Notes under the pieces: generated by a model
The model's database searches: none
Told to the model about the DNA's origin: nothing
The model's input: the letters and a program-made list of their open reading frames with translations, nothing else
Program-made: the position numbers and the translations under genes
Shown here: one piece after another, positions 3,934 through 23,810 of the stretch
Position numbering within the stretch: position 1 is the first letter of the stretch
How the letters are laid out: the number at the start of each line of letters is the position of its first letter
Origin: a bacterium
GTDB taxonomy: Bacteria; Patescibacteriota; Minisyncoccia; Ryanbacterales; GWA2-47-10b
Reading direction: 5' to 3'
Assembly: GCA_027624915.1 (NCBI GenBank)
Contig: JAQBTR010000005.1
Span: forward strand, 1 to 48,419
DNA length: 48,419 nt

Positions 3934-4752
3934 TTAACGAATAGCTTTGACTTGTGTGACAATCTCACGAAAAATCTGATAGACATCCTTAATAAGCATC
4001 TTTACTTCCTTGAGCTTAGATTGTATCCGCTTAAGAAAATCGAGGTCTGTTTCATTGTTCTGAATAATCTCCTTTACGTCACTCAGAATATTTTTTGCAG
4101 TTGTTATTTTTTCTCTTGCGCTCGATAGAAGACGTTTTAATTCTGTCACGTCTTTTCCATTCTCTGAGAGGTCGGTTAGATATTGCTCGATTCTATCAGC
4201 ACGAGCCTCAATGGTTGTAATGACTCGATGCTCATAGACACCGATGTGTGCAAGTAACACGAGACCACGAACCTTGGTGTTGTATGCATTTTTTCTATGC
4301 GATGCGAGCTCTTCCTTGATGCGTGCCAACTCTTCAATTGTAGTTGCGCTGTTGGTTTTTTCTTGAAGCTCAGTGAGCTTGGCAATATCACGATCAATTT
4401 CGGCAATAATGCGTGCTTCGAGCTCATCATCTATTACTGGGAGATTTGTGACCCGCTCTTTTAAAAGCTCTGCATGTTTAATAAGTGAGTCTATGGCACG
4501 AAGTAAAAACTGCTTTTGTCGTTCAAAATTATTATTGTCACCTAGTCGCTCACGCGCCTCTTGAAACCTAGTACGAGCCTCTTGGAGATTGCTCTTATCC
4601 ATCTTTTTTTGAAATGCCTCACGCACTTTTAATACACCGGCGCGAGCTGGTACACGCCTATGAGATTCTGCAACAGCGGCAGGCGCAAAGGTTGCGACAC
4701 CTATGGCAACTGCAAGACCCCCTATAATAATTTTTTTGTGTAATGTGTTCAT
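3934..4752 (-). CDS. Secreted alpha-helical/coiled-coil hypothetical protein
   Basis: Signal peptide (KKIIIGGLAVAIGVATFAPAAVA) followed by helical E/K/R-rich body; third gene of ECF operon. Confidence 0.8.
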   Translation of the reverse strand: MNTLHKKIIIGGLAVAIGVATFAPAAVAESHRRVPARAGVLKVREAFQKKMDKSNLQEARTRFQEARERLGDNNNFERQKQFLLRAIDSLIKHAELLKERVTNLPVIDDELEARIIAEIDRDIAKLTELQEKTNSATTIEELARIKEELASHRKNAYNTKVRGLVLLAHIGVYEHRVITTIEARADRIEQYLTDLSENGKDVTELKRLLSSAREKITTAKNILSDVKEIIQNNETDLDFLKRIQSKLKEVKMLIKDVYQIFREIVTQVKAIR

Positions 4753-5324: not shown

Positions 5325-5881
5325 ATGAGATTATTATTTTTAAATTCGGCTCGCAAAGACTTAAGTGCCCGACTTTGCACTTGTCTTATTGCCGGTTCTG
5401 ACTTGCCTGTCATTTTAGCAATTTCTTTATTGGTAAGCCCATCAATAAATTTTAAAGTCATAATTTCGCGTTGGTCATCCCCCAGACTCGTAAGCGCACC
5501 GTACACCAAACGAGAGGCTTCATTTTGTTCGGCGAGCCGCTCTGTTCTGTCAGGTGCTTCACGTGTGGCAAAAAACACGTCAGGGTCATCAGGTATCAAA
5601 TCCTTTTTCTTTTTCCAATGATCAATAATACTGTTGCGTGCAATGGTATAGAGCCATGCTAAAAAGCGTTCTTCCCTATCATCAAATCGCGGAAGCGCAT
5701 TCCACGCTTTTACAAACACGGTTTGTGTAAGATCTTCGGCATCTGCTCGGTTACGAACACGTATAAATACAAAGCGAAAAATCGGCGTCATAAACTGCCG
5801 ATACAGATCGTCAAATGCGGCACTATCACCGCCTTTTGCCTTTTGTACTAAAGCTATCAATGAAGAGTCATTAAGTGACAT
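5321..5881 (-). CDS. ECF RNA polymerase sigma factor (sigma70 family)
   Basis: GDSAAFDDLY, DAEDLTQTVFVKAW, AWLYTIARN, region 4 GLTNKEIA; start moved to ATG 5881 (MSLNDSS). Confidence 0.93.
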   Translation of the reverse strand: MSLNDSSLIALVQKAKGGDSAAFDDLYRQFMTPIFRFVFIRVRNRADAEDLTQTVFVKAWNALPRFDDREERFLAWLYTIARNSIIDHWKKKKDLIPDDPDVFFATREAPDRTERLAEQNEASRLVYGALTSLGDDQREIMTLKFIDGLTNKEIAKMTGKSEPAIRQVQSRALKSLRAEFKNNNLI

Positions 5882-5916
5882 AAGTACAACGATTATACAC
5901 ATATCTTGTGACAAAT

Positions 5917-5942
5917 AAAAAGGCTGGCCTGTGAGCCAGCTT
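5917..5942 (-). terminator. Hairpin terminator
   Basis: AAAAAGGCTGGC-CTGTGA-GCCAGCTT. Confidence 0.55.
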
Positions 5943-6036
5943 GTCATGATATAAATCCTTTGGGACGCCATCCTTTTTGATAGCAAGGGTCGCACACAGG
6001 AACGTTAACTAGAACGCCATGTTGCTTAGCGATGAG

Positions 6037-6316
6037 TCAAAAAATCACAAACCTAAGTCTGTGATTTTTTGATTGTGCGCGACTTCAAGTCTTCTATCGT
6101 TATAAACAGTCAAAAAAAGCGTGGTGTAAAACACCAGCTTTTTTGATTGTGCGCGAGAGGAGACTTGGTCACAGCTCTTGCTACGCAAGGCCGCTACCCC
6201 GCCTCCTCATGCCTACGGCATATCGTCCGGCCTTCAAGTCCCCACGCAAGCAAAGCAGTTTGCTTGCTCTCGCTTACAAATAAAAATGGCTGGCGAAAAG
6301 CCAGACGTTTTTATTT
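6037..6316 (-). repeat. Array downstream of tRNA-Leu: repeated tRNA 3'-end fragments alternating with terminator hairpins, containing a structured T-loop element
   Basis: TGTGCGCGA at 6075, 6148 and 6316; 18-nt tRNA match 6150-6167; hairpins 6037-6073, 6111-6146, 6283-6312; element 6168-6267. Confidence 0.85.
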
Positions 6317-6317
6317 G

Positions 6318-6401
6318 TGCGCGAGAGGAGACTTGAACTCCTACGGGATTACTCCCACACGCCCCTCAAGCGTGCGCGTCTACCAGTTTCGCCACCCGCG
6401 C
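6318..6401 (-). tRNA. tRNA-Leu(GAG), no CCA
   Basis: GCGCGGGTGGCGAAACTGGTAGACGCGCACGCTT-GAG-GGGCGTG, long variable arm, GGAGTTCAAGTCTCCTCTCGCGCA. Confidence 0.95.
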
Positions 6402-6403
6402 AT

Positions 6404-6901
6404 TTATTTTTTAGTTGCCTCAGCTTTAACAGCCTCAGCTTTTTCTTCCGACGAAACTTCTTGTAAAGTTTTTTCGGACACGTCTACCTTATCTTCGCTT
6501 GAATCAGCTTCATTTCCAACCGCCGGAGTTGCCTTTTGAACTGCAAACTGAACCTGACGCATCTTCTTGCGCATGTCGCGAGCTGCCTTGTGACGGAGAT
6601 AATACAATTTTGCACGACGCAAACGAGATGCACGTCGTACTACTTCAATTTTTTCGATTACTGGTGAATGAAGAGGAAACACTCGTTCAACACCAACACC
6701 CATAGACATCTTACGAACGGTGAATGTTCCTGAGATACCCTTACCATGTTTTTGAGCAAGAATAAGACCCTCGAATGTCTGGAGTCGAGACTTTTCACCT
6801 TCTTTAATTCGTGTGGTTACGCGAACCGTGTCTCCAGGTCGCATATCTACCTCGGATGGTTTCATGAACCCCTTTATATCATAATCTACTGCGATTGACA
6901 A
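6404..6901 (-). CDS. rplS: 50S ribosomal protein L19 with acidic C-terminal extension
   Basis: [37 protein letters not shown]; exact start uncertain. Confidence 0.95.
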
Positions 6902-7587
6902 TGTTTTAAGGTCTTTTCGAGATCTTGTGGCAGTGGAGCCTCCAAGGTCATGTGTTCGCCTGATGGAAGTGCAAAATCAAGCCGAAAGGCATGTAAAAAC
7001 TGCCTTTTTAGTGTGGTTGGGCATACATTGCGCTTGCCTGCATAAAGCTCGTCACAAACAATAGGATAGCCAATGTGAGCTAAATGTGAGCGTATTTGAT
7101 GTGTTCTCCCTGTCTTTGGAGATACCTCGAGAAGCGTAAATTTATTGCCAAATCGTTCTCTTACCTTGTACTCGGTTACGGCATCTCGTGACTTTCCCTG
7201 TTCACCTCCCACAACACGCTTTTCAAAATTTTTGGTTGAACGTGCGAGTGGTTCATCTATTATCCCTGAATCGTCTCGAACAGAACCGACTACAAGTGCC
7301 AAATATATTTTTCTAATCTTTCGCTCTTTAAATAATTCTTTAAAATGACGAAATGCATTTCCGGTTTTTGTAATTAACAAAACGCCCGACGTATCCTTAT
7401 CGAGACGATGCACGATACCAGGGCGCTCGGAGTCTTCGCCTACCCCCTTAATGTCAGGATAATTTTCTAGCAACCAGTTAACTACCGTACCCTTCTTGTG
7501 ATGGTCGTCAGGATGCACCACAACGCCGGCCGGTTTATTGATGACGAGTATTTCCGAGTCTTCAAATATGATTTTCGGTGCTCGCAT
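6886..7587 (-). CDS. RluA/RluD-family pseudouridine synthase (no S4 domain)
   Basis: [26 protein letters not shown]; start at ATG 7587. Confidence 0.93.
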
Positions 7588-7672
7588 AGCCTCTACATAA
7601 TAGCGAAAAACTCGCAAAATTGCGAGCCCTCGGTGTAACGTTATACTGCTCGCTTCGCTCCCAGTATCCTAC

Positions 7673-7712
7673 AATCCGCAAATGAACAATCTATAATTGT
7701 TCAGCGGAATTG
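7673..7712. repeat. 40-bp dispersed palindromic repeat, copy 1
   Basis: AATCCGCAAATGAACAATCTATAATTGTTCAGCGGAATTG; same length and flanks as 23132-23171. Confidence 0.8.
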
Positions 7713-7719
7713 TGGTCAG

Positions 7720-8130
7720 CTACGTTACAGACTTTATCTTCTCAGCAATCACCTCTAATTCTTCGGTTGGTTTGTTAGAAACAACAGACTGTAATGAACT
7801 TCCTCCATCTCCCTTCCAGCGTGGCATAATATGAAAGTGCATATGGTCTACTTCTTGCCCTGATACTCGTCCGTAATTCATCCCGAGCGTAAAACCATCT
7901 GGCACGAGAGCTTTTTTAACTTTGTTGGTTACCAATTGAACCGCTTCAAAAAATGGACCGACATCTTCTTTTGGTAATTCTGATAAGTTTTCTACATGTT
8001 TTTTTGGTATCACCATTGTGTGCCCAGGCGAACGAGGTTGAGCATCCAAAAACGCAAGAACAATATCATCCTCATATACTTTTACTGGTAAAATCTCCTC
8101 TGCTATTATTTTGCAAAATAGACAATCCAT
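7720..8130 (-). CDS. HIT family hydrolase
   Basis: MDCLFCKII, GHTMVIPKKH, HMHFHIMPR. Confidence 0.95.
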   Translation of the reverse strand: MDCLFCKIIAEEILPVKVYEDDIVLAFLDAQPRSPGHTMVIPKKHVENLSELPKEDVGPFFEAVQLVTNKVKKALVPDGFTLGMNYGRVSGQEVDHMHFHIMPRWKGDGGSSLQSVVSNKPTEELEVIAEKIKSVT

Positions 8131-8139
8131 AATAATTTT

Positions 8140-10632
8140 TTATAGTTGAGTAATTTCTTTCGGATCAAATATAAATGTATCTCCTCGCTTGAGTTCGCCT
8201 GAAAGAATTTTTTTGGCGATTACCTGTTCTACATGATCCTGAATTGCGCGGCGCATTGGGCGTGCACCAAATGTCTTGTCATACCCAATCTCTACCACAC
8301 GAGCTGCTAGATCTTCTGTTGGTTCAAAATTAATATCTTTTTCTTTTAATCTCTCACCCAACTCACTGAGCAATATTAATGCTACTTTTGTAAGTTCTTC
8401 TTTGGTAAGTGGATGATACACAATCATGGAATCAAACCGATTCAAAAGTTCTGGCGGAAAACTTCCCTCGGCCCGCACCGCCTCAATAGTTTCTGACTGA
8501 ATTTGTTCTGTGGTCTTATTCGCTTTTAACATGTCCCAAATGGCATTAGAGCCTGCATTTGAAGTCATTATTATCATGCTTTCTCTTGCCGATACTTCAC
8601 GTCCGCCTGCATCAGTAAATCTACCCTCATCCAAAATTTGTAAAAAAAGATTAACAACCTCAGATGAAGCTTTTTCAAACTCATCAAACAAAAGAAGACT
8701 AAACGGTCTTTCGCGCAAGCGAGAGGCTAGTATTCCTGGCTCTTCATGCTCCGCCGACCCTATGAGTTTTTGTATACCTTCGTCTCCCTGATATTCGGAC
8801 ATATCAAAACGAATCATTGATTCAACATCACCAAAATAAACCTCAGCAAGTGTTTTTGCAGTTTCCGTCTTTCCAACACCAGTGGGGCCAAGAAACAAAA
8901 ATGTGCCAAGTGGTCTATCTCCTTCTCTTAGTCCCGAGCGTGCTCTGCGCAATGCGTTTGATACGGCACTTATTGCATGCTCTTGGCCAACAATACGCTG
9001 GTGCAAAATCTTCTCAAGATTTAATAGTTTCTCTTTTTCCTCCCCTTCCGCGTCTAGTGTAGGTATTTTTGTTCTTTTGTTAACGACAGCATCTATATCC
9101 TTTGCTGTAATAAGTGTCGGCGATTTTCCTGCCACTGCTCCCGCACCATCAAGCAAGTCTATGGCCTTCTTTGGCATTGCGCCCTCCGTAATAAAACGTC
9201 TTGCAAGCTCCTCCGCTCGTCTTAGTGCTTGATACGTAAATATATGACCAGTCGTCGCTTCAAGAGTTATAAGGACATCTTCAAGCATACGAATAGTACG
9301 GGCGGGCTTGGGCTCCTCTACTTCAAACTTTTCAAATAGTCTTGCTACCTTTTCGTTTGACTCAAGATGTTTGTGATACGTACTTCTTGTCGCTAATGCT
9401 ATCACCTGTAAATCTGCGCGTGATAAAAACGGTTCTATAACATTTAATATATCAACGCCAAGCTCATGAGCAGACTCAATAAGAGCTGGTAAGTTATTTA
9501 TAACAAGAATAATGTTTCCTGCCTTAATTGAATCTAAAAATATCTTTAAAATAACCTCCTCGTAATTGCCGATGTCCTTTGTTGATGCTACAAGACCCGC
9601 CTCATCCAAAATAATGACACGCTTATCCCAAAGCTCTGGCGCAGAGCGTCCAACATGTATGCTCTCGGCCAATCCTTCAACAATGGTGTGCCTGCCAGAT
9701 CCTTCATCTCCAACCAAAAGAACGTTTGCTTCGTATGACCGTGCCAAAATATCTTGAACTGATTTTATTTCTTGGGTTCTTGCTTCGCGCTCTAAGAGTG
9801 ATCGTGACGATATTACCTCGTTAGAATATGTATCTAAAGTAAATGTATATCCGTACCCAAGGTCTCTTATTAAGCTCGGAAAACGAAGCAGCATATCTTT
9901 TGACCACCAAACACTTCTTCTTCCCTCTTCGTTAAAGGCATGCTCCACCCAAAATGCGGCCTCTATTGCATCCTCATCTTTAATTTTGTTTTTAAACAAA
10001 AAATCTCTAAGAGCTTTGTCGTGAGTTAGTAAGGCAACCAACATATCGCCAACACGAATTGTTATAGCGGCCCTCCTATCAACGTTGTTGAGGGCGGTTT
10101 TAAATAAAATATCGGATGGTAGTACGTCTTCATCGCGCGCTCCATTAACCCAGGCCATAGCATCTCTGCTTGATAGCCCAAGTCTCAGAAAAAAAACTTT
10201 TCCAAAATTTGTTTTTGAAAATAAATCTGCAAACCTTGAGAGTTGTATAGTACCGATAAGTGGCGTCTTTGTGTAAGACACCATACGAAGAGATTCTATG
10301 CTCGCATAGTATGTTGTGTCATTCTTTTGAAAAAGTCGAACATGATTGAGGTTTGAACGGTAATAAAATTCAATAGCAACTATATCAAGCCACAAACCAA
10401 ACAAGACCAGGGTGGCACCATAGAGAATTGTTTCAAACTTTGAGATGGTAACTAAAAAATCTTCAGGAAGAAAAGCGGAAGCAAACATGACTGCAAGAGA
10501 AAGAAGAAGTAAAATACTAAAAAAGACCGTAACAAAAAATGCATATGTACGGCGTACTCGCCAAGAAATCCAGGAATCTAAGCTAAAGGCCTTGATTGCT
10601 GTTGGTTGAGAATTTAAAAGATTATATGTCAT
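8140..10632 (-). CDS. ClpA/ClpB-like AAA+ ATPase with N-terminal transmembrane anchor
   Basis: Two N-terminal TMs; degenerate D1 (GDEGSGRH); intact D2 GPTGVGKTETAK, RFDMSEY, LFDEFEKA, GARPMRRAIQ. Confidence 0.9.
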   Translation of the reverse strand: MTYNLLNSQPTAIKAFSLDSWISWRVRRTYAFFVTVFFSILLLLSLAVMFASAFLPEDFLVTISKFETILYGATLVLFGLWLDIVAIEFYYRSNLNHVRLFQKNDTTYYASIESLRMVSYTKTPLIGTIQLSRFADLFSKTNFGKVFFLRLGLSSRDAMAWVNGARDEDVLPSDILFKTALNNVDRRAAITIRVGDMLVALLTHDKALRDFLFKNKIKDEDAIEAAFWVEHAFNEEGRRSVWWSKDMLLRFPSLIRDLGYGYTFTLDTYSNEVISSRSLLEREARTQEIKSVQDILARSYEANVLLVGDEGSGRHTIVEGLAESIHVGRSAPELWDKRVIILDEAGLVASTKDIGNYEEVILKIFLDSIKAGNIILVINNLPALIESAHELGVDILNVIEPFLSRADLQVIALATRSTYHKHLESNEKVARLFEKFEVEEPKPARTIRMLEDVLITLEATTGHIFTYQALRRAEELARRFITEGAMPKKAIDLLDGAGAVAGKSPTLITAKDIDAVVNKRTKIPTLDAEGEEKEKLLNLEKILHQRIVGQEHAISAVSNALRRARSGLREGDRPLGTFLFLGPTGVGKTETAKTLAEVYFGDVESMIRFDMSEYQGDEGIQKLIGSAEHEEPGILASRLRERPFSLLLFDEFEKASSEVVNLFLQILDEGRFTDAGGREVSARESMIIMTSNAGSNAIWDMLKANKTTEQIQSETIEAVRAEGSFPPELLNRFDSMIVYHPLTKEELTKVALILLSELGERLKEKDINFEPTEDLAARVVEIGYDKTFGARPMRRAIQDHVEQVIAKKILSGELKRGDTFIFDPKEITQL

Positions 10633-10633
10633 A

Positions 10634-11014
10634 TCAGCTTATTGCATATACAAACCCAAATAAAAATGCCAACGGGGCTAGAATAGGGGCAAACAAAACC
10701 AACACAACAAAGAGTCCACCAATCACAAACCCAACAACCTGAGCCATAACACCAATAAACACAAAAACAGTACGTACAACCATACCAACAATACGCATAA
10801 GAGAATTCACTGCTATAACCTCAAAAAAGTCCTGAATATCAAACCCTCGCCTACGTGTCTCTTTTATCCGATAAAGAGGTGAGAAAAAATTACCTAACAG
10901 GGTCGGAATAGAAAACATCCTAAACAAGAACCAATGTATGTTAAACCAAGCGTTAAAAAGAGCTGGAATCCCTACAGAGTACTGCCATGTAATATATCCA
11001 ACGATGCTATTCAT
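10634..11014 (-). CDS. Small membrane protein co-transcribed with the Clp ATPase
   Basis: 126 aa hydrophobic; stop 1 nt from the Clp ATG; TGT-TACAAT 7 nt upstream of start. Confidence 0.8.
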   Translation of the reverse strand: MNSIVGYITWQYSVGIPALFNAWFNIHWFLFRMFSIPTLLGNFFSPLYRIKETRRRGFDIQDFFEVIAVNSLMRIVGMVVRTVFVFIGVMAQVVGFVIGGLFVVLVLFAPILAPLAFLFGFVYAIS

Positions 11015-11056
11015 TGAATATATTGTAACACTCTATTAAAAATGGGTCAGCGTGGA

Positions 11057-11746
11057 TTACGACCCAAGTCTACGCTCACGTCCTTGAAACTCATTAACTG
11101 CGGCTTCAAAGTCCTCAGGCGTAAAATCCGGCCACATTTTATCTGAAAAATGAAGCTGTGCATCCGCTACGTCCCACATCATAAATCCTGCAGATAGGTG
11201 TGGGTCACCACCGGTTCTAATTACCAAATCTACTGGGGGTAAATCTTTTGTATACAAATACTCTTTCGGATCGGCAGACCCAGCTGCACTCGCCTCTTTA
11301 AATGCGTACCTCATCTCACTCTTGCCGTCATAGCAAATCAAAAGATTGAGCACATGCTTTGTACGTGAACGAGTGTCTCCAATCACCTTGTGAAAAAGAT
11401 TGACCAGAGGTTCTGGCAGCATCTCGCGCCACTCACCCATTACTCGGACACGTACATCATTTTCTTTGAGATGGTCACTACCTAGAGCCTTTTGCATCAT
11501 TCGACGAAAAATATTAAAAAGTTCTGCTATCTCACGCTTTTCTCGTTTGCGAATATTATCGATGCTCATGCCCCAAAACGAAAGACAGTAGACATTCATA
11601 TCTACCGATTTTTTTAGGATGTCTTCGAACGCCTTATGGCCGGCACGATGCCCCGCCCAGGGTGAATTCCCACGTGCCTTAGCCCAACGGCGGTTACCGT
11701 CAGGAATGATTGCGATATGTTTAACTTTATAATCGTGATCAGGCAT
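11057..11746 (-). CDS. uppS: Undecaprenyl/polyprenyl diphosphate synthase
   Basis: HIAIIPDGNRRWA, VDLVIRTGG, WPDF, RERRLG. Confidence 0.95.
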   Translation of the reverse strand: MPDHDYKVKHIAIIPDGNRRWAKARGNSPWAGHRAGHKAFEDILKKSVDMNVYCLSFWGMSIDNIRKREKREIAELFNIFRRMMQKALGSDHLKENDVRVRVMGEWREMLPEPLVNLFHKVIGDTRSRTKHVLNLLICYDGKSEMRYAFKEASAAGSADPKEYLYTKDLPPVDLVIRTGGDPHLSAGFMMWDVADAQLHFSDKMWPDFTPEDFEAAVNEFQGRERRLGS

Positions 11747-11769
11747 ATATATGTAACGCAGTGAAAATC

Positions 11770-13014
11770 TTATTCGTATCTGAGGGCTTCTATAGGACTT
11801 CTCTCGCTCGCCTTACGTGCAGGATACAGCCCGAAAACAAGTCCTACAAGTGATGAGATTAAAACTCCGAGTGTCGCTGCAGGAATCGAAAACTGAAAAC
11901 TCCATGCAAACCCTGCGAATGCAGTTATCGCAAGAGACAACAAAAATACTATAAGAGCTCCTGATGCAACACCGAGTATGCCTCCGGCTGATGTAAGTAA
12001 AACTGCCTCCGTCAAAAATTGACGCATAATGTCCTTTGTTGTAGCACCAAGTGCTTTGCGAAGTCCGATCTCGCGCGTTCGTTCTGTTACTGATACAAGC
12101 ATTATATTCATGATGCCCACACCACCAACAAGTAACGCGATTGCGGCAATCGCCGCCACCGCATTGGTCATAATATCGATAATCCCACTTGTTTGATCTA
12201 AAAGATTTGCTTGCGTCAAAACATGAAAATCATCTTTATCGGGGTCGGAGATACCATGAAGCTCGCGTATCGTCGCCTTAATATCTTCTACGGTACTGTC
12301 GGTGTTAGCAACATCCGCGACGCGCACCCAAACTTCGTTATAATGATCCGTTCCTGTTAAATATGTCTGTGCCGTTGAGTACGGAACAATGACAAGTTCT
12401 CCAATATCAAAGAACAGTACTTGACCACCCTCAGCAAGAACACCAGTCACTCTGAAGTTTTGATCTTTTATCTTAACGATTTTACCAACAGCACTATCAG
12501 AGCCAAATAATTCTTCAGCAACACTCGCGCCAAGAACTGCAACACGTTCTTTGTCGGCGATTGCCGCTTCACCAAATAAAAATCCTTCTTTAGGCTCAAG
12601 ATCAAAAACTGTAGACATAAACTCCGCTGAAAATCCCATCATTAGCGGACGGTAAGTCTCTCCCCTATACGATATAGAGCCTGGAATAGAGACTGCCGGA
12701 ACTACTTCTAAAGCTCCTGGTACGTTGGATTTTTTCTGAAGGGCTCGTATGTCTCTTTCTTTGATTGTGTTGGTAAGAGCGGTCTGTGCGAACTCCGTAG
12801 GGCCCTCGGGCTCTCGTCCCGGTTCAATCCAAATAATATCTGAACCGAGGGACTGTAGCTCCCCCGTAATAAGGTGAGTCGCGCTATTGCCAGCTGAAAC
12901 AATAATTGTAATAGACATAATTCCTATAACAATCCCAAGAATAGTTAAGAGCGAACGAGACTTGTGTCGTAGGAGACTCTTTAATGCGCTTTTTAAAATA
13001 TTTTTAAAATTCAT
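11770..13014 (-). CDS. MacB/FtsX-like ABC transporter permease
   Basis: RSLLTILGIVIG, GGVGIMNIMLVSVTERTREIGLRKALGA, PIEALRYE; start ATG 13014. Confidence 0.93.
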   Translation of the reverse strand: MNFKNILKSALKSLLRHKSRSLLTILGIVIGIMSITIIVSAGNSATHLITGELQSLGSDIIWIEPGREPEGPTEFAQTALTNTIKERDIRALQKKSNVPGALEVVPAVSIPGSISYRGETYRPLMMGFSAEFMSTVFDLEPKEGFLFGEAAIADKERVAVLGASVAEELFGSDSAVGKIVKIKDQNFRVTGVLAEGGQVLFFDIGELVIVPYSTAQTYLTGTDHYNEVWVRVADVANTDSTVEDIKATIRELHGISDPDKDDFHVLTQANLLDQTSGIIDIMTNAVAAIAAIALLVGGVGIMNIMLVSVTERTREIGLRKALGATTKDIMRQFLTEAVLLTSAGGILGVASGALIVFLLSLAITAFAGFAWSFQFSIPAATLGVLISSLVGLVFGLYPARKASERSPIEALRYE

Positions 13015-13015
13015 A

Positions 13016-14263
13016 TTAGTCGTAACGCAAGGCTTCAAGTGGACTCTTTTTTGAAGCGCGATTAGCCGGATAAAGACCAAAGACAATACCAACTAGTGCA
13101 GATACAAAAATACCCAAAATCGCGCCCGAGACAGGAAAGGCAAAATCCCACTGGGCATCCATAATATTAGAAAGCAATAGAGATATCCCATATGAAAGTA
13201 TGGCTCCTGCCAAAACACCAATAACACCTCCTACGAGCGTAATTACCAAGGCTTCAATCAAAAACTGAAACAAAATATTTTTGCGAGTAGCACCAAGAGC
13301 TTTGCGAAGGCCTATTTCCTTTGTTCGTTCGGCCACCGCAACCAACATAATATTCATAATTCCAATGCCACCTACCAAAAGAGAGATTGCAGCAACCAAT
13401 ACCAAGAAAGAGGTAAGAACACCTGTAACGGTGCTCACTGTTGAAGTTAACTCATCCTGAGTTCCAACAAAAAAATTATCGTTATCAGGATCAGTAATGC
13501 CATGTGTCTCTCTAAGGGTTCGTTCTATGTCCAAAACAGTTGCATCAATATTTACCGGATCGTCTACTTGTGTAATAAAACGATTAAAATGCTTGATGCC
13601 AAAAATATTACGTTGAGCATACGTATACGGGGTAATAATTGCTTTATCAAAGTTAAAGAAAAGTACCTGCCCCTTCGCAGGGAGCGTCCCAATAACACGG
13701 AGATTGTTTCCTTTGACCTTTATCTTTTTTCCTATCGGGTCATCGTGTGGAAAAAGTTCTTCGCGAACATCTTTTCCAATAACCACCACTGGTGCATATC
13801 CAGTCACTTCGTCCGTTGTAAAAAATCTTCCCTGATCCGTAAATACATCAAAAAGGAAACTTATGAGCTCTGTTGCTCCAATAATCATTGGTGCAAAGGT
13901 CTCTCCTTCGTATGAGATAGTTTCAATTGCAAATACAACAGGCATTACCTCTGTCAGATGAGGAACGTTTGCTTTATTTTTTAACGCATGAAACTGTCGC
14001 TCTTTAAGCGAGTCACCATACAGTGTCTCTATTATTGCGGGGTCTGCGGGTCCTGTTGGTTCTCGTCCAGGTGCGATTGCTATCGTTCGCGCACCAAGTC
14101 CTTCAACCTGATTAAGAATGAGATTTTCGGCAGCCTGACCTACGGACATAACAATCATAATCGCCATGATTCCAACAACAATACCAAGAATTGTAAGAAT
14201 AGTTCGCGACCGATGGAGTGCGAGGCTACGATATGCCGACTGTACTAGGTGAGTCGTCCGCAT
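13016..14263 (-). CDS. MacB/FtsX-like ABC transporter permease (paralog)
   Basis: GGIGIMNIMLVAVAERTKEIGLRKALGA, PLEALRYD; start ATG 14263. Confidence 0.93.
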   Translation of the reverse strand: MRTTHLVQSAYRSLALHRSRTILTILGIVVGIMAIMIVMSVGQAAENLILNQVEGLGARTIAIAPGREPTGPADPAIIETLYGDSLKERQFHALKNKANVPHLTEVMPVVFAIETISYEGETFAPMIIGATELISFLFDVFTDQGRFFTTDEVTGYAPVVVIGKDVREELFPHDDPIGKKIKVKGNNLRVIGTLPAKGQVLFFNFDKAIITPYTYAQRNIFGIKHFNRFITQVDDPVNIDATVLDIERTLRETHGITDPDNDNFFVGTQDELTSTVSTVTGVLTSFLVLVAAISLLVGGIGIMNIMLVAVAERTKEIGLRKALGATRKNILFQFLIEALVITLVGGVIGVLAGAILSYGISLLLSNIMDAQWDFAFPVSGAILGIFVSALVGIVFGLYPANRASKKSPLEALRYD

Positions 14264-14270
14264 AATCGTC

Positions 14271-14996
14271 TTATTTAATAAACTTATCGCCGCGCTTGTG
14301 ACGCCTCGAAACCTTGGAATCTGTTTCCACTCGCCCATCGCGCAATCGAATAATCCTGCTTGCGTAATCTGCTGTATATGTTTCGTGCGTAACCAAAATA
14401 ACCGTATGGCCATGAACCTCGTTTAATTCCTGGAGCGTATCCATAATAATTCGTCCCGAATCCGAATCGAGGTTACCTGTTGGCTCATCCGCAAATATTA
14501 TTGTTGGTTTGTTTACTAGGGCTCGCGCAATAGCGACACGTTGTTTTTCTCCACCTGATAGCTTTGTTGTTTCAAAATTGGCACGATGATCAAGCTGAAC
14601 AAGTTTAATTGCATCCATTGCTCGTTTTTCCCACTCACTTTCTGGAACACTAGAATACATAAGTGGAAGTTTTACGTTTTCAAGCACCGTATGACGTGGC
14701 AAAAGATTAAATGATTGAAAAACAAACCCCATCTTGCTGTTACGCACGCCAGCTACCTGATCGTCAGTTAGGTCCTCAATTGTTTTGCCATCAAATGAAT
14801 ATGTTCCTCCTGTTTGTCGATCCAAAAAACCAAGAATATGAAGAAGTGTAGATTTGCCTGAACCAGACGGGCCCATGATTGCTACAAACTCTCCTTTATT
14901 AATATAAAAAGAGATGCCATGGAGAACCGGGGTTTCTATCTCGTCTGTATAGTATGTTTTTTTAACACCCGAAAGATCTAAAAGTTTCTCGGTCAT
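14271..14996 (-). CDS. ABC transporter ATP-binding protein (LolD/MacB-like)
   Basis: [33 protein letters not shown]. Confidence 0.95.
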
Positions 14997-16543
14997 TCTC
15001 GTACAAACACTATTATCTTGTCGCCCACCGAAAGGCCAGATGTAATTTCTATTGTTCCTTCAGATCCGCGAAGGCCGGTTGTCACCACAACCTCTTCATG
15101 AGAGTCTCCACTAACAACTCGTACAAATTTCTTTCCATCTTTTGAGACAACCGCACGAGCTGGAATTGCAATCACACCCTTTTTCTCATCAGCTCGGATG
15201 TCGATATTTGCCGTCATGCCAGAACGAATTCTTTCATCCCTCTCATCGAATACAAGAGTTACTTTATATGTTGCCACTCCTTCAATTACGGTTTCTGCAG
15301 GATCAATTTTTGATATATGAGCCATAAAAATATCATCACTCGTGTACGCATCTAACGTCACTCGTGCAGAATCTTCTAACTTAAGGTTAGAAATATCAGA
15401 CTCTGGAACATTAGCCTCCATTTCAAATCCACTCGTACCAATAACTGATACGAGATTTATGTTAGCCGCAACAATCTCACCTACTGTGGCATCCTGTCTT
15501 GTAACAATTCCACTAATTGGTGTTCGTATGATTGTTTTGGCGATTTCTGCTCCAATGCCATCGACTCGTGCTTGCGCGCTTTCTACATTTGCTTCTTGTC
15601 TCAATATCTCTTCGGCTGTTGTTCCTGCTTTAGCAAGAATTAACTCTTCTTTTGCTAGTGACAAGCTTGAACTCGCTTGGCGAAACTTTTCTTCTGCAGC
15701 CGACATATTAATAATGCCAGTATTTACTGAGGTGCGCGCAGTAGACGTATCTGTCTGATAGGTAGATTGTGTTGCTGTACTTATACCACCAACAGTTCCA
15801 TTAATCGCAGATGCAATTAGATCGAGTAGATCACGTACGGTACCCATAACTGACTTTGCTTCTTCAAAATACACATTCATATCGCTAGAAGAATTTAAAA
15901 CAAGGAGGTTGTCTTCCCATCTTTCTAAAAGTAACTCTAATAGGAACCTGGCAGTTTCGATATTGATCTCACCCTGAACGCCTGGTGAGAATACTAATTG
16001 AGGATTATCACTTCTCGGTCCTGTAAACATAGAATCAATATTTTTTCTTATTCCATCGTCCGAGCGCGTAAATGCATCTCTCATTTTATCTATCGCATTT
16101 AGTTTTGCGTCCACAAGAACCTGCTCCTGATTAGCAACTTTGACGCGAGCAATTTCTACTTCTTCTGGTCGCGTTCCTCGTTGTAGCTCTGACAATCGTG
16201 CATTTTCTGCTTTCAAGTTTGCTTGTGCCTCTGCCAGGTCTGCACGCAGGTCTGCATTGTTTTGCTGAACCAAAACTGCACCGCGTCCCACGGTATCTCC
16301 AACATCTGCAGAGATTGAAGCGATACGCCCTGACTTTTCAAACGCAAGATTAACGCTTTCAGTTGCTTGCACGCGGCCAGTAACGCTAATCTCCTGAACT
16401 ATATCTGTAAGCTCAATGTCAAGAAATTCATTCGTTGATTCTTCTGGGCTTCTAAACAACATGTAAGTCCCAATAATCAAAAGAATAACTGCTACAATTA
16501 GTACAGCGCGTTTGTGACTAGTGAAAAATCCCATCATGCTCAT
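14993..16543 (-). CDS. MacA/HlyD-family efflux adaptor subunit with long coiled coil
   Basis: TM anchor, SGRIASISADVGDTV, IRTPISGIV, IRSGMTA; start about ATG 16543. Confidence 0.9.
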   Translation of the reverse strand: MSMMGFFTSHKRAVLIVAVILLIIGTYMLFRSPEESTNEFLDIELTDIVQEISVTGRVQATESVNLAFEKSGRIASISADVGDTVGRGAVLVQQNNADLRADLAEAQANLKAENARLSELQRGTRPEEVEIARVKVANQEQVLVDAKLNAIDKMRDAFTRSDDGIRKNIDSMFTGPRSDNPQLVFSPGVQGEINIETARFLLELLLERWEDNLLVLNSSSDMNVYFEEAKSVMGTVRDLLDLIASAINGTVGGISTATQSTYQTDTSTARTSVNTGIINMSAAEEKFRQASSSLSLAKEELILAKAGTTAEEILRQEANVESAQARVDGIGAEIAKTIIRTPISGIVTRQDATVGEIVAANINLVSVIGTSGFEMEANVPESDISNLKLEDSARVTLDAYTSDDIFMAHISKIDPAETVIEGVATYKVTLVFDERDERIRSGMTANIDIRADEKKGVIAIPARAVVSKDGKKFVRVVSGDSHEEVVVTTGLRGSEGTIEITSGLSVGDKIIVFVRE

Positions 16544-16625
16544 ATAATAAGGTATAAAAGGGTTTTCAGGAAGGTTAATTCGTGCTATTATCACTCCCAC
16601 ACTAATATGGAGAGTGTGGCCAAAT

Positions 16626-16697
16626 GGCCCCATCGTCTAACGGTTAGGACGTCAGGTTTTCATCCTGGAAATAGGGGTTCGATTCCCCTTGGGGTCA
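16626..16697 (+). tRNA. tRNA-Glu(TTC), no CCA
   Basis: GGCCCCATCGTCTAACGGTTAGGACGTCAGGTT-TTC-ATCCTGGAAATAGGGGTTCGATTCCCCTTGGGGTCA. Confidence 0.95.
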
Positions 16698-16799
16698 CAT
16701 TCAGAAACTTGGTCGGAAGTAAGCGCAAAATCTGGGCGCGCCGAAGGCGCGCTGTATGGCGAGGGTATGAAATCCGTCTTGCGGGCGCGGGCGAATTCG

Positions 16800-17094
16800 A
16801 TAGAGATCCTTTGGATGGTACATCAAACAAATCGTCATGGCTGTTGCCTCGCCTTAGGTCAAGGTCTCCAGACATTGCCGTACCGTGACATGCGTCAGCG
16901 GTGCAGCCTTGTTGTTCGAAAACGACTTCTTGAATTGCATCAAATGTACTGTCAAAACTTGTATCACATTCTGGATTTTCTGGCGGCGTAGGTGGGGGCG
17001 TATTCTTTACGTCTCCAGAACTACCACTACTACCGCAAGAGATTATAAAAATTGCGACCAATATGCCGCACAGATAGATAATGCGCAGTTTCAT
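16800..17094 (-). pseudogene. Truncated lipoprotein with CxxxxCH heme-like motif; the reading frame runs on into non-coding DNA and antisense tRNA-Glu
   Basis: SD AAGGAG; lipobox IIS-C; Pro linker; FDSTFDAIQEVVFEQQGCTADACHG...LDL; protein-like character ends near KGSL. Confidence 0.65.
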
Positions 17095-17199
17095 CTCGAT
17101 CTCCTTGTTAAGTTGTAAACGTGCGCCTCTTTAATTATCGCACCCCCTCATTGTATTGCAGTGCAATACAATGAGGCTCAATACTTCATCTTTCTCTAC

Positions 17200-17925
17200 C
17201 TACTCACCCTTCTCATCGCTCGGTAGTGGAAAGATGAAAGATAAGACTTTATCCATTCCTCCATATACGGTGTTGACTGCATCATCAACTGCTCGAAATT
17301 TGGGATCTACTTCTCGCATATATGCATTGTTAGCTTGTTCTCGAGCTATTTCAGCATCAATTTGATTGTTACGCGCCATAACTCTATATATCGGCGCCAC
17401 GTCTCGCTGATATCGATATGCTTCAACCCGCGCCTCTCTAGCTCTTGCGCGTGATTCAAGTCTTGCGGTTTCGCTACGGGCTGCTGATTCGACCTGAATA
17501 CGACCTGCCTGTTCCATGCGTAGTATTGCAGCCTCCTGTGCTGCAGGAACTGAAAGTGTGGCGGCTGGCCTCGTAAACCTCATTCGTTGAGCGGCGGCAT
17601 CTTCTGGTTTCATCATTGACCCCATACCTCCCGCAAAAATTGTGCCAAGCATAAAAACACGCAATCCTTTTGCTAAGCCTGGGTAACTATGAGCTAATTT
17701 TTCTAAAGCACCTGGCTCATCTGGATCTTCGCCCGCTCTTTTTGTAAGTTCACGCAACATATCACCCTCCCCTCTTGCGAAGTCAGTTCTAAGACCCTCT
17801 TCCAATTCAGGAAGTGGTTCTTCGGTAATCTCGCGAATAATCTCTTCTTCTTCTGGAGAAAATTCTGGGGTTTTTATTTCTTCTTCGTTTTCTGGACCTG
17901 ATGTGTTCATGCTTTCCATATTCAT
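17200..17925 (-). CDS. Hypothetical protein (acidic N-terminus, central hydrophobic segment, Ala/Arg-rich helix)
   Basis: 241-aa ORF starting 2 nt after the upstream gene. Confidence 0.75.
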   Translation of the reverse strand: MNMESMNTSGPENEEEIKTPEFSPEEEEIIREITEEPLPELEEGLRTDFARGEGDMLRELTKRAGEDPDEPGALEKLAHSYPGLAKGLRVFMLGTIFAGGMGSMMKPEDAAAQRMRFTRPAATLSVPAAQEAAILRMEQAGRIQVESAARSETARLESRARAREARVEAYRYQRDVAPIYRVMARNNQIDAEIAREQANNAYMREVDPKFRAVDDAVNTVYGGMDKVLSFIFPLPSDEKGE

Positions 17926-17927
17926 AT

Positions 17928-18197
17928 CTATTCTTCTAGGTAAGCAAATAATTCCTTTCGTTCGGCCTCAATAATCTCTTCTGTCCCACCATTATCTACT
18001 GCTGCAATCTTTAGCTTCATGTTTTCTGTTACTTCAACAAGCAGTCCTGGATCATTTCCTATGACGCCCACAAAAAGAACCATGGCTTCTGGCGCCATAA
18101 AACCAAAACGCTCCTTCCACAAGGTAACGTCATCCTTGTGAAGCTCACTTCCATCAAGAAGTTCATGCGCTTTTTCTATGACATCATCGTGTTGCAT
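17928..18197 (-). CDS. Small acidic hypothetical protein
   Basis: 89-aa ORF; TACTAT shortly upstream of ATG. Confidence 0.7.
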   Translation of the reverse strand: MQHDDVIEKAHELLDGSELHKDDVTLWKERFGFMAPEAMVLFVGVIGNDPGLLVEVTENMKLKIAAVDNGGTEEIIEAERKELFAYLEE

Positions 18198-18277
18198 ATC
18201 TCTATAGTATGTAGGAGATACAAAATTACAAGCTTCAAATATAATAGAAACGTGGTAAAATCCTAGTTACCTCACTC

Positions 18278-18354
18278 GGGCGTATAGCTCAGCTGGTTAG
18301 AGCGTTGCATTGACATTGCAGAGGTCGGAGGTTCGAGCCCCCCTACGCCCACCA
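18278..18354 (+). tRNA. tRNA-Val(GAC) with CCA
   Basis: GGGCGTATAGCTCAGCTGGTTAGAGCGTTGCATT-GAC-ATTGCAGAGGTCGGAGGTTCGAGCCCCCCTACGCCCACCA. Confidence 0.95.
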
Positions 18355-18374
18355 CCCAGGTTTTATTAAATAAA

Positions 18375-18504: not shown

Positions 18505-18531
18505 TATCCTAAACTTCTAGGGCGCACACAA

Positions 18532-21740: not shown

Positions 21741-21758
21741 ATTAACTTTTTATATGTA

Positions 21759-22481: not shown

Positions 22482-22482
22482 C

Positions 22483-23325: not shown

Positions 23326-23332
23326 GCTAAAT

Positions 23333-23407: not shown

Positions 23408-23442
23408 ATTTCAATTGTCCCATGAATATAACGCAGGACTCG

Positions 23443-23592
23443 GTCACAAATAATTTTTCTAACGAAAAATTTTCTCAGCCCCGCCTCGCGGTGCTCACCT
23501 TGTTCTCCTTTCGGTCGAACAAACTCGCACAACGCTGCGGCCTTCGAGACCCTCTAATTAAGTAAAGCAGTTTACTTAATTAGAGGGTCTCG
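23443..23592 (-). mobile_element. Putative non-autonomous structured element inserted in the T-loop of a tRNA-Val copy
   Basis: Splits GCAGGACTCG|AACCTGCGACATCTTC with CTCG at both ends; shares GTCACA, CCCCGCCTC, CGGCCTTCRAG and AAAGCAGTTT blocks with 6168-6267. Confidence 0.65.
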
Positions 23593-23736
23593 AACCTGCG
23601 ACATCTTCTTAATCAGTACTTTGTGGGCGATGCAGGACTCGAACCTGCGACATCTTCGGTGTAATCGTTAAAAAGACATAACATGTCTTTTTAACTCCAG
23701 CCAACCCCCCCCACATTCTATTGCTTAAAGTCTTAG

Positions 23737-23810
23737 TGGGCGATGCAGGACTCGAACCTGCGACATCTTCGGTGTAAACGAAGCGCTCTAGCCAACTGAG
23801 CTAATCGCCC
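23737..23810 (-). tRNA. tRNA-Val(TAC), no CCA
   Basis: GGGCGATTAGCTCAGTTGGCTAGAGCGCTTCGTT-TAC-ACCGAAGATGTCGCAGGTTCGAGTCCTGCATCGCCCA. Confidence 0.95.

Follow-up and report, generated by a model that had tools for sequence, protein, structure and literature searches.

Organization of the locus

The window (by which we mean the whole 48,419-nt stretch of DNA analysed) carries an intact tRNA-Leu(gag) gene at 6317..6401 on the minus strand, detected by ARAGORN and matching the Rfam tRNA model with 47.1 bits. It is the sole Leu(gag) gene in the genome and, as the tRNA on the side of the element described here, is full length. The element follows the tRNA 3′ end behind a spacer (6274..6316, minus strand) in which direct reading of the sequence places a bidirectional terminator-like hairpin at about 6281-6312.

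All further parts of this Leu copy are likewise assigned to the minus strand, the sense strand of the tRNA. A short segment at 6268..6273, read directly as GCGAGA on the sense strand, is complementary to the acceptor 3′ strand of a tRNA fragment at the far end of the element, and is paired in the minimum-energy fold of that strand. Next comes hairpin H3 (6246..6267; direct reading and sense-strand fold), with the apex AAAGCAGTTT on the plus strand and the loop CUGC on the sense strand; it is an accessory part, missing from the minimal copy L056. The internal guide at 6233..6243 repeats, in inverted orientation, the T-loop and the T-stem 3′ strand of the host (TTCAAGTCCCC when read on the plus strand) and forms helix P1 with the fragment, an assignment based on covariation in P1 and on the match to the host at T-loop positions 57-58. 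The arm HP-A (6201..6231), defined from an alignment of 102 sequences and from folds, has invariant GCC/GGC closing pairs, a variable hairpin (hp2) and conserved GGA and GA bases in an internal loop. The arm HP-B (6167..6198), defined by covariation, consists of a covarying stem (hp1) on a near-invariant foot, GGUCGCG/UGUGACC, that contains two G.U pairs; in the Leu copy the foot reads GGUAGCG. The 3′ end of HP-B is the joint with the displaced tRNA-Leu 3′ fragment (6148..6166), which begins at T-loop position 57, includes a few flank bases beyond the tRNA 3′ end, matches the 3′ terminus of the intact gene without a difference and is followed by its own terminator at 6107-6146. By direct reading, the stretch 6035..6146 (minus strand) forms an older layer with two more terminator hairpins and a shortened tRNA-Leu 3′ end (6074-6095), which look like the remains of earlier events at the same tRNA. 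One long imperfect palindrome is made up by the inverted copy of the element together with the spacer loop and tRNA 3′ end.

A preliminary description, made from the letters of the window, had reported the same ordered blocks at a Leu and a Val copy, and both copies were located at the places described. In the Leu copy the blocks are GGTCACA (6167-6173), CCCCGCCTC (6197-6205), CGGCCTTC (6228-6235) and the hairpin with the AAAGCAGTTT apex (6246-6267). These blocks had been read on the plus strand, whereas the strand that folds is the tRNA-sense strand, i.e. the minus strand of the window. The end of the Leu copy had been set at 6267 and has to be moved: the unit runs on to 6273, and the spacer with its terminator then extends up to the tRNA at 6317.

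The second copy (23442..23595, minus strand), recognized by direct reading and by a match of 53.1 bits to the covariance model R1 (see below), consists of a core at 23442-23545 and a long, guide-containing hairpin at 23543-23595, with GGTCACA at 23442, CCCCGCCTC at 23479 and CGGCCTTC at 23538. Its insertion site is the T-loop of a tRNA-Val remnant that lies between tRNA-Phe and tRNA-Val(tac). Direct reading assigns the 3′ side of the remnant (T-loop 3′ half and T-stem 3′ strand, with the acceptor part lost) to 23432..23441 and its 5′ side (variable region, T-stem 5′ strand and TTCGAG) to 23590..23608, both on the minus strand; the intact tRNA-Val(tac), found by ARAGORN and Rfam, lies upstream of the remnants at 23736..23810 (minus strand). 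As a correction to the preliminary description, the host of this copy is the partial remnant and not an intact tRNA-Val. Another integration scar, a tRNA-Val 3′ half starting in the anticodon loop, is present nearby (23624-23662).

Detection and spread of the element family

The ordered two-block pattern has two matches in the window versus 0.00 expected, and none of 100 shuffled sequences reached two, which excludes chance as the source of the blocks. The covariance-model search that had been proposed earlier was run on the source genome: model R1 found four copies genome-wide, beside tRNA-Leu, the tRNA-Val remnant, tRNA-Met and tRNA-Ala, so that all four adjoin tRNA genes or their remnants. 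A three-block pattern used in a public sequence search gave 109 matches on 106 contigs, mostly from Patescibacteria; 105 of the 109 were taken as credible and four loci were judged to be chance matches. The AAAGCAGTTT-type apex, present in the Leu copy, is not a universal trait of the family (GCAG-type apex in 25 of the 105 copies).

Within the class of the source genome the element is present in 30 of 201 genomes and in 24 of 158 genera, with zero to six copies per genome. Among 10 family-level genomes the two-block pattern was found in one, the source genome itself, and a search of viral contigs gave no matches, arguing against a phage origin. Rfam 15, run over the whole window at gathering thresholds, returned tRNAs only; with E-values up to 10 at both loci, there were only hairpin-type matches far below the cut-offs, with no ribozyme among them. 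A hit to a known family, the outcome that the preliminary description had named as contrary to its reading, was thus not obtained. Inspection by eye against consensus features found no fit to the folds of HDV-like, hammerhead, twister or hairpin ribozymes, nor to those of group I or group II introns, archaeal bulge-helix-bulge introns, SRP RNA or tmRNA. The elements are described here as protein-less units of about 100-230 bp residing in tRNA and tmRNA genes of Patescibacteria (CPR).

Insertion point and match to the host

Copies randomly placed and lacking a T-loop junction had likewise been named as contrary to the earlier reading. Of the 105 credible copies, 88 have a tRNA or tmRNA no more than 300 nt away on the other strand, with hosts spanning 15 tRNA amino-acid types and two tmRNAs. 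The displaced fragment begins right after the T-loop GTTC in 80 of these 88 loci, the other eight being unmappable; since C is the last base of the element, the joint is resolved only to within a single position (T55|C56 or C56|R57). The host gene is restored, and its 3′ part from the T-loop onwards is present as a direct repeat. In 79 copies no more than 140 nt separate the core from the tRNA, and the median spacer measures 61 nt; L056, the minimal copy, directly follows the CCA end of its tRNA. A terminator-like hairpin with a T-run was scored in 24 of these 79 spacers, including that of the Leu copy, and 55 spacers have none.

The claim that the TTCRAG block mirrors the T-loop of the host holds across the family. 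At T-loop positions 57-58 the inverted block equals the adjacent fragment in 86 of 105 copies (GA with GA in 68 and AA with AA in 18); 16 copies have a TC variant, from which tandem G.A pairs would result, and three have other combinations. Cross mismatches, GA with AA or AA with GA, do not occur at these positions among the 105 credible copies. On the sense strand the guide is ordered as a host-specific part followed by an invariant GAA able to pair with TTC.

Secondary structure and covariation

The tRNA-sense strand folds into a three-way junction of P1, HP-A and HP-B, in which the insertion joint is the point where HP-B stacks on P1. It is the more stable strand in 98 of 99 distinct cores (mean −37.2 versus −27.4 kcal/mol). 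In the set of 102 sequences P1 is 82.4% paired and seven of its eight pairs change on both sides, which, together with the 86 of 105 matches at positions 57-58, bears out the expected covariation of the element with the host T-loop. HP-B is 94.6% paired and also has seven pairs that change on both sides, so the variable hairpins do keep their pairing, as had been noticed in the two copies of the window; the three closing pairs of HP-A are invariant in all 102 sequences. The covariation score is 0.427 versus 0.144 in shuffles, with none of 500 reaching it, and slid controls score 0.06-0.13; the score is computed over related copies, whose kinship can overstate structural constraint. At the two wobble positions of the HP-B foot, GU is found 100 times and AU twice, and GU 84 times and AU 18 times, respectively. 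These two conserved G.U pairs favour the tRNA-sense strand, since the opposite strand would give A.C.

Pairing of the segment before H3 with the acceptor 3′ strand lends the Leu and Met copies of the source genome an outline like that of a tRNA; this pseudo-acceptor pairing is imperfect or missing in many copies (e.g. L008 and L056). Of the 198 hairpin loops on the sense strand, 33 are GNA triloops, too small a share to favour DNA over RNA.

Evidence bearing on mobility

The element is missing beside the orthologous tRNA-Leu(gag) in two relatives (G007 and G004) and occurs in tandem arrays at four loci (L009, L053, L078 and L109). In one genome, G102, four hosts share five copies, two of them at Leu and one each at Arg, Tyr and a tmRNA-like 3′ end; among these sister copies the variable hairpins are nearly identical, while each guide is fitted to its own host. 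Together with the patchy distribution, these observations support the earlier proposal of a non-autonomous, structure-recognized mobile element or recombination site of T-loops, and we infer that the element moves as a unit. The comparisons with REPINs and attC sites made at the same time are analogies only. At locus L130 the new tRNA 3′ end and flank differ from the old flank; the matching parts are therefore not a simple target duplication.

Near-identical copies lie beside tRNA-Gly(tcc) in three species, each adjoining a decayed fragment (L006, L060 and L083), the core being nearly unchanged across species while the fragment next to it decays. Such copies could reflect selection at the level of the host rather than selfish spread. 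Contigs of four DNA runs gave, for window positions 5800-24000, only cross-mapping tRNA pieces from other organisms; none joins across either element, and they are hence uninformative on empty sites. In the data examined, neither excised nor circular forms nor empty sites came to light.

Search for a mobilizing enzyme

The preliminary description had seen no mobilizing enzyme in the window. A search of the contig for recombinase, reverse transcriptase and HUH families agrees, its sole signal being a DEDD transposase (PF01548) match of 17.8 bits at C7:4279-4431, below the 29-bit cut-off. Genes neighbouring the elements are housekeeping genes, and inspection by eye of the ORFs of 12 loci with the tRNA distant or missing found no recurrent recombinase-like gene.

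At the genome level the Y1 transposase/RAYT family (PF01797) has no matches in the source genome (G000). Reverse transcriptase (PF00078) has none in G000, G102, G051 and G033, is present in G153 and is weak in G049. Priming of reverse transcription by a tRNA was rejected as the source of the fragments: the Leu fragment runs into genomic flank and not into CCA, and the genome has no reverse transcriptase. A tyrosine recombinase of about 300-320 aa occurs at least once in all six genomes tested (the source genome and five other copy-bearing ones), and its presence does not discriminate between readings, among them a folded attC-like or Xer-exploiting site recombined by IntI or Xer. In G051, which has four copies and is rated 100% complete, there is one tyrosine recombinase, with serine recombinase, reverse transcriptase and Y2 transposase all absent; G102, with six copies, also has one tyrosine recombinase.

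Interpretation and alternative explanations

Our preferred reading, held with moderate confidence, is a new non-autonomous, site-specific mobile element of tRNA and tmRNA T-loops that restores the tRNA 3′ end. The element would enter the T-loop directly after G53-T54-T55-C56, bringing a fresh tRNA part, from position 57 to the 3′ end, and a spacer that in some cases is a terminator; since the fresh 3′ part is supplied by the element, the host gene would stay intact. At the Leu locus the R57-to-3′-end part of tRNA-Leu(gag) 6317..6401 would be of this origin. The old 3′ part would be pushed downstream and decay there. In P1 the guide, complementary to the 3′ half of the host T-loop and to the 3′ strand of its T-stem, would pair with the tRNA 3′ part and so place the target T-loop beside the joint. 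The folded single strand, most likely DNA exposed in replication or transfer, would be the substrate of a cutting-and-joining enzyme acting in trans and either encoded elsewhere or lost.

The serious rival to a mobile element is a functional tRNA-like RNA transcribed with the tRNA, or just after it, from the same strand, a possibility that we regard as real although unlikely. The pseudo-acceptor and P1 would mimic the acceptor/T-arm stack, tRNA-processing enzymes would release the RNA, and the three-way junction would replace the T-loop and carry the function, which might be that of a ribozyme, of a decoy for proteins or of a factor regulating its tRNA; the duplicated tRNA end would then mark the origin of the gene and not ongoing mobility. 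The folding of the tRNA-sense strand, its conserved G.U pairs and tandem G.A motifs, the tRNA-like outline of the Leu and Met copies and a core almost constant between species beside a decaying fragment all agree with this. As a scored terminator is present in only 24 of the 79 spacers, read-through with the tRNA is possible in the remaining 55, L056 even lying directly after a CCA end, and an RNA role is conceivable. The 24 copies behind a terminator-like hairpin, the Leu copy among them, speak against it, as do the imperfect or missing pseudo-acceptor pairing in many copies and the lack of an Rfam ribozyme match at E-values up to 10. Presence in 30 of 201 genomes, absence from the orthologous locus in relatives and copy numbers from zero to six are more readily reconciled with an element that is accessory or selfish than with a housekeeping RNA. 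We also considered, as a doubtful variant, that the three-way-junction molecule is itself active, as a guide-bearing nucleic acid, possibly a ribozyme or a guide for a host enzyme; it would recognize the universal T-loop by pairing, through GAA:TTC and the host-specific guide, and attach its 3′ end to position 57, amounting to a ‘tRNA-homing’ element free of protein genes, whose guide is rewritten for each new tRNA by a copying step.

It is improbable, in our view, that the element is a miniature derivative of IS91-family rolling-circle transposons (HUH Y2), with the enzyme nicking single-stranded DNA after the T-loop GTTC, HP-B acting as the subterminal palindrome and a single-stranded circle as intermediate. 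According to published work (PMC13181058), IS91-family elements insert next to 5′-GTTC or 5′-CTTG without target duplication, have imperfect subterminal palindromes at their ends and form a single-stranded circular intermediate; the present joint follows GTTC in all 80 mappable loci. The source genome moreover encodes one protein with Zn_Tnp_IS91 and Y2_Tnp domains (128.6 and 91.8 bits, contig C23), with a tyrosine-recombinase gene upstream and, by eye, a tRNA-Leu-like 3′ fragment just after the transposase gene. The link of this transposase to the element is nevertheless weak: Y2_Tnp occurs in two of 30 element-positive genomes (and in none of 36 element-negative ones), R1 finds no core-like sequence on the two IS91 contigs (best 7.4 bits, E 0.37), and blastn between these contigs reveals no shared ends. 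In IS91 the tetranucleotide comes after the oriIS end, as the strand is written (PMC13181058). On the folding strand of the present element GTTC stands before the inserted segment, in no clear agreement with that orientation rule; the 3′ end of the element is GACC and not GTTC or CTCG.

Two further explanations were considered. Very improbably, the copies are relics, or attP-only mini-versions, of tRNA-integrating islands or phages, the blocks being double-stranded arm sites of a P4-type tyrosine integrase. The direct repeat of the tRNA 3′ part from the T-loop with restoration of the gene, the tmRNA targets, the tandem arrays and the further scars at these loci (among them the tRNA-Val 3′ half at 23624-23662) are what such relics would leave. 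Against them stand the 79 copies with a tRNA within 140 nt, whose median spacer of 61 nt offers no room for cargo or integrase; the lack of matches in viral contigs and of a recurrent gene in loci without a nearby tRNA; the single tyrosine recombinase in genomes with four (G051) and six (G102) copies; and the inverted host-matched copy, for which a standard att site has no use. In addition, the compensatory changes seen in the hairpins, like the asymmetry between the strands, point to folding of a single strand and not to duplex sites. Template switching at quasi-palindromes is an established mutational process, and it could have extended the tRNA terminator hairpin into the tRNA 3′ end next to a core that is an unrelated small repeat. 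The single imperfect palindrome formed by inverted copy, spacer loop and tRNA 3′ end suits such a by-product of replication, but the invariant core, the fixed GTTC joint and the direct repeat of the tRNA end are left unexplained, and the same architecture recurs at 15 tRNA amino-acid types and tmRNA in many lineages, so that we give this account hardly any credence.

Large mobile islands classically land in tRNA genes. Under the preferred reading of a mobile T-loop element, the same landing-site logic would operate in an element of about 100-230 bp without a gene of its own, in many lineages of Patescibacteria, whose genomes are otherwise very small and repeat-poor. Guides that differ from host to host, and among sister copies of one genome, imply a mechanism of retargeting, which is explained by none of the transposon or integrase families compared below. 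If the enzyme or catalytic nucleic acid is found, it would provide a new programmable site-specific insertion system and would account for the numerous tRNA-end fragments of these genomes as well. For annotation, the elements create tRNA pseudo-fragments and tRNA-like folds, which gene callers may misread.

Comparison with known systems

The apparent likeness to IS91/ISCR elements lies in the GTTC target, the absence of a short duplication, the subterminal palindrome by the cleavage site and the single-strand logic; the GTTC orientation does not clearly agree with the published rule (PMC13181058), and the GACC end does not fit it. The IS91 transposase is, besides, encoded in only two of 30 element-bearing genomes, and the element has no ends in common with the IS91 copies examined.

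In P4-like islands and phages a tyrosine integrase carries out crossover in the T-loop, and a direct repeat of the tRNA 3′ end, restoration of the gene and arrays are the classical signs. The element shares with them the tRNA and tmRNA targets, the T-loop joint, the new 3′ end, the old end left as a direct repeat and the arrays. It differs in its size of 100-230 bp without integrase or cargo, in its inverted guide and covarying hairpins, and in that one conserved core serves many tRNA types.

Guide pairing is known from several systems. IS608 carries short internal guide sequences that pair with its cleavage site and its target site, and pairing of this kind, in non-autonomous hairpin elements, is the likeness to the IS200/IS605, PATE and REPIN/RAYT group; PF01797 is absent from the source genome, and the present element has a guide of 8-11 nt, an acceptor-matching segment and a replacement gene end. 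The bridge (seek) RNAs of IS110/IS1111 and the guides of group I introns are structured non-coding parts complementary to the insertion site, as is the short guide stretch here. The DEDD transposase of IS110/IS1111 is missing (17.8 bits versus a 29-bit cut-off). As to group I introns, the part of the guide that pairs with the downstream side lies 5′ of the GAA that pairs with the upstream TTC, an arrangement reminiscent of P10-P1 in a group I guide; the element has neither an intron core nor an Rfam intron match, and its upstream pairing would span only 3 nt.

Finally, attC sites and the attP(+) of CTX phage are strand-specific imperfect hairpins recognized by shape by an enzyme supplied in trans. 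An integron integrase context is lacking here, and the target is the T-loop and not attI or dif. The element shares with these sites strand-specific hairpins, conservation confined to short blocks and arrays arising by repeated insertion at the same site, and it differs from their single hairpins in being a three-way junction with a helix matched to the target.

Copies of the element in the window and in the host genome

The Leu copy of the element, a short protein-less folded unit in the T-loop of tRNA and tmRNA genes, is read on the plus strand from 6148, with its intact host, tRNA-Leu(gag), on the minus strand at 6317-6401. The first 19 bases repeat the tRNA-Leu(gag) 3′ end without a mismatch, the cut being in the T-loop. 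They are followed by GGTCACA and a hairpin (6167), by CCCCGCCTC and a hairpin (6197), and by CGGCCTTC (6228), which continues into TTCAAGTCCCC, where the host T-loop and the 3′ strand of the T-stem stand in reversed orientation. A hairpin with apex AAAGCAGTTT occupies 6246-6267, the TCTCGC after it copies part of the acceptor 3′ strand, and next in order are a bidirectional terminator-like hairpin and the intact tRNA. The same set of blocks forms the Val copy (23442-23595), which interrupts a tRNA-Val remnant in its T-loop, the remnant lying between the genes for tRNA-Phe and tRNA-Val(tac). The two-block pattern was observed twice in the window versus 0.00 expected.

Motif scanning of the genome gave a third copy, adjoining tRNA-Met(cat) on contig C10. 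The covariance model R1, built on 102 sequences, had four matches in the 839-kb genome: the Leu (69.6 bits), Val (53.1 bits) and Met (32.4 bits) copies and a new, divergent Ala copy (30.7 bits) at C6:45443-45579, downstream of tRNA-Ala(tgc). Every one of them is placed 3′ of a tRNA gene or tRNA remnant, and their orientation relative to it is uniform.

Other scars and repeats were seen near these genes. At the Val locus, 23624-23662 holds a 3′ half of tRNA-Val from the anticodon loop to the 3′ end, a second type of scar, which suggests a separate integration event of anticodon-loop type in the same gene. Downstream of tRNA-Leu, 6035-6146 carries three successive units of the form terminator hairpin plus TTG(A/T)TTGTGCGCGA, with a shortened tRNA-Leu end (6074-6095) among them; judged by sequence, they look like layers of earlier tRNA 3′-end replacements. 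T-arm fragments without a core trail other tRNAs of the genome (on C17 after tRNA-Lys(ttt) at 88196, on C20 after tRNA-Asn at 24921), and a 95-nt tRNA-Ile(aat) called by ARAGORN at C8 7705-7799 may contain an insertion. Another family of repeats, (ATTTTTAAYG...)AAAATGGAAATRCTCTTGTGGTGC, with 11 genome copies at ≤3 mismatches (window 23242-23265, C10:20096 and nine elsewhere), has the look of a promoter or leader; one of these copies sits within the element's Met copy.

Distribution

In the species-representative genome collection the three-block pattern had 109 matches in 106 stretches, against a chance expectation of ∼3 by our own arithmetic. Four loci (L018, L027, L044 and L084) look like chance, being high in G+C and lacking both the other conserved bases and a nearby tRNA. 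Most of the 105 credible matches belong to MAGs that bear the label Saccharibacteria, Paceibacterota/Parcubacteria, Nomurabacteria, Kaiserbacteria, Berkelbacteria or ‘Patescibacteria group’, and a few to MAGs labelled Elusimicrobia, WS2, Nanoarchaeia or Gammaproteobacteria (labels as given, binning unchecked). Typical copies at five loci under these latter labels (L010, L022, L032, L034 and L071) mean either that the element has spread horizontally outside Patescibacteria or that contigs were mis-binned; the 1.8-kb L010 locus has no tRNA. Viral contigs yielded zero copies. Within the class, the two-block pattern was present in 30 of 201 sampled genomes (24 of 158 genera), at 1 to 6 copies per genome, with one of the 30 positives, G129, looking like chance to us.

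Target site and host matching

Of the 105 copies, 88 have a gene for a tRNA or tmRNA no more than 300 nt beyond CGGCCTTC, on the opposite strand; several of the other 17 stop at a contig edge. The hosts are Gly (23), Leu (13), Ser (9), Arg (7), Met (6), Tyr, Pro, Asp and Val (4 each), Glu (3), Phe, Ala, Trp, His and tmRNA (2 each) and Gln (1). The bases flanking GGTCACA map directly after GTTC (G53-C56) of the intact tRNA in 80 of the 88, the joint being unmappable in the remaining eight. Counted from the joint, exact identity extends over a median of 17 nt; because the last base of the element is C, the joint can be placed only to within one base.

The preliminary description had claimed that the TTCRAG block mirrors the host T-loop, and the larger set bears this out. 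In 86 of 105 copies (GA/GA 68, AA/AA 18) the inverted block and the fragment beside it carry identical bases at T-loop positions 57-58, and not one of the 105 has a GA-with-AA or AA-with-GA cross mismatch. These positions are TC in 16 copies, where tandem G.A would replace two Watson-Crick pairs, and show other combinations in three. What shows as TTCRAG is thus a section of a longer helix matched to the host.

Folding and covariation

The tRNA-sense strand has the more stable fold in 98 of 99 distinct cores (mean −37.2 versus −27.4 kcal/mol), and individual folds and the alignment give a single architecture on it. In the 5′-to-3′ direction, the intact tRNA is followed by a spacer, often a short complement of the acceptor 3′ strand, often a hairpin, H3, and then the guide, which is complementary to the T-stem 3′ strand and the T-loop 3′ half and has an invariant GAA at its end. 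Next come G, the arm HP-A (GCC-GGA-hairpin-GA-GGC), GG and the arm HP-B (GGUCGCG-stem-loop-UGUGACC). The displaced tRNA end, from position 57 onward, abuts HP-B and forms helix P1 with the guide. The predicted fold is a three-way junction with the insertion joint at the stacking point of HP-B and P1. By eye, recurrent CTCGC-TTCG-CTCG motifs, unpaired on the plus strand, fold on the sense strand into hairpins that contain tandem G.A pairs.

Over the 102 sequences, 91.3% of cells were paired versus 75.4% in shuffles. The covariation score was 0.427 versus 0.144 shuffled, a value reached by none of 500 shuffles; kinship among sequences can beat shuffles without any constraint, and such an artefact is made less likely here by the slid controls (0.06-0.13) and by how many pair types occur. 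HP-B is 94.6% paired, with two-sided changes at seven pairs, and P1 82.4% paired, with two-sided changes at seven of eight. Two wobble positions are conserved in HP-B (GU 100/AU 2 and GU 84/AU 18), and these G.U pairs would become A.C mismatches if the other strand folded.

Signs of mobility

The orthologous tRNA-Leu(gag) genes of two relatives, G007 and G004, lack the element. In both (L118 1000-1420 and L119 1000-1500, respectively) an ORF whose C-terminal part resembles, by eye, a large serine recombinase terminates at, or inside, the 3′ end of this tRNA; in these relatives the tRNA seems to be a hot spot where another element inserts.

Tandem arrays occur at L009, L053, L078 and L109 and in genome G102. 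The variable hairpins are almost alike in five of the six G102 copies, hosted by a tmRNA-like 3′ end (assigned by likeness to L068), tRNA-Arg, tRNA-Tyr and, twice, tRNA-Leu, every guide being matched to the host beside it. In the window's genome, the Leu and Met copies are mutually closest in the second hairpin. At L130 the 3′ flank of the old fragment differs from that of the new tRNA end, so the new end and spacer were brought in by the element, not copied from the target. A minimal copy, L056, has neither H3 nor spacer, its guide and core standing directly after the tRNA CCA end.

Search for a mobilizing enzyme

The neighbouring genes in the window are housekeeping ones (sigma factor, L19, pseudouridine synthase, carbamoyltransferase, Hsp20 and PrsW protease). 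The genome encodes two tyrosine recombinases, an Xer-like one on C12 and another on C23, and the search of it returned no serine recombinase, reverse transcriptase or Y1 transposase, and for DEDD transposases only a sub-threshold match. The latter (IS110 domain, 16.4 bits in one scan and 17.8 in another) falls in a 272-aa ORF of no clear family (3934-4752, minus strand) and is probably noise.

The single IS91-family transposase lies on C23 just downstream of the second tyrosine recombinase, the recombinase gene and the Zn_Tnp_IS91 plus Y2_Tnp gene forming an IS91-family unit at 106-2150. What follows it (about 2150-2200) resembles, on reading, a tRNA-Leu 3′ fragment, shortened and with its cut in the T-loop, so that a T-loop GTTC may have been the landing site of this transposon too. 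In PMC13181058, IS91-family elements are described with GTTC/CTTG-adjacent insertion, subterminal palindromes and a single-stranded circle, features that make a rolling-circle origin attractive. That origin is weakened by the rarity of the transposase (two of 30 element-bearing versus none of 36 element-free genomes, the latter taken as the lowest-numbered negatives), by R1 finding nothing over two IS91 contigs and by the element's GTTC orientation, which has no clear fit to the published IS91 rule.

Among other multi-copy genomes, G051 (four copies) has one tyrosine recombinase and no serine recombinase, reverse transcriptase or Y2 enzyme, and G102 (six copies) has one tyrosine and one large serine recombinase. 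Candidates for the enzyme are an unrecognised protein, a lost partner and the host's one Xer-type recombinase, which would then act on a folded strand.

Nature of the element and comparison with known systems

The element family is real, widespread, conserved and structured, specific for the T-loop and paired in a host-matched manner. Its accessory, multi-copy, site-specific insertion behaviour speaks for mobile DNA, as does the terminator-like hairpin that precedes some copies, the Leu copy included; we consider this reading evenly poised between right and wrong. That the element is an RNA we think rather improbable, though a hairpin with a T-run was found in only 24 of 79 spacers (a crude test), and conservation of the G.U pairs, like the resemblance in outline to a tRNA, would fit a transcript freed by tRNA-processing enzymes. 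At three loci beside tRNA-Gly(tcc) in three species (L006, L060 and L083), moreover, the core is almost constant and the fragment decayed. Most likely the family is a new kind of non-autonomous mobile element; the full texts searched (supplements excluded, subscription journals mostly uncovered) hold no description of it.

The membership tests run for islands, IS91, IS608, bridge RNAs and group I introns placed the element in none of these. It differs from a tRNA-integrating island in having neither the defining integrase nor cargo, and resembles one in its targets, in gene restoration and in displacement of the old end. Its target tetranucleotide, orientation apart, and its single-strand logic recall IS91, and its guide logic is common to IS608, bridge RNAs and group I introns.
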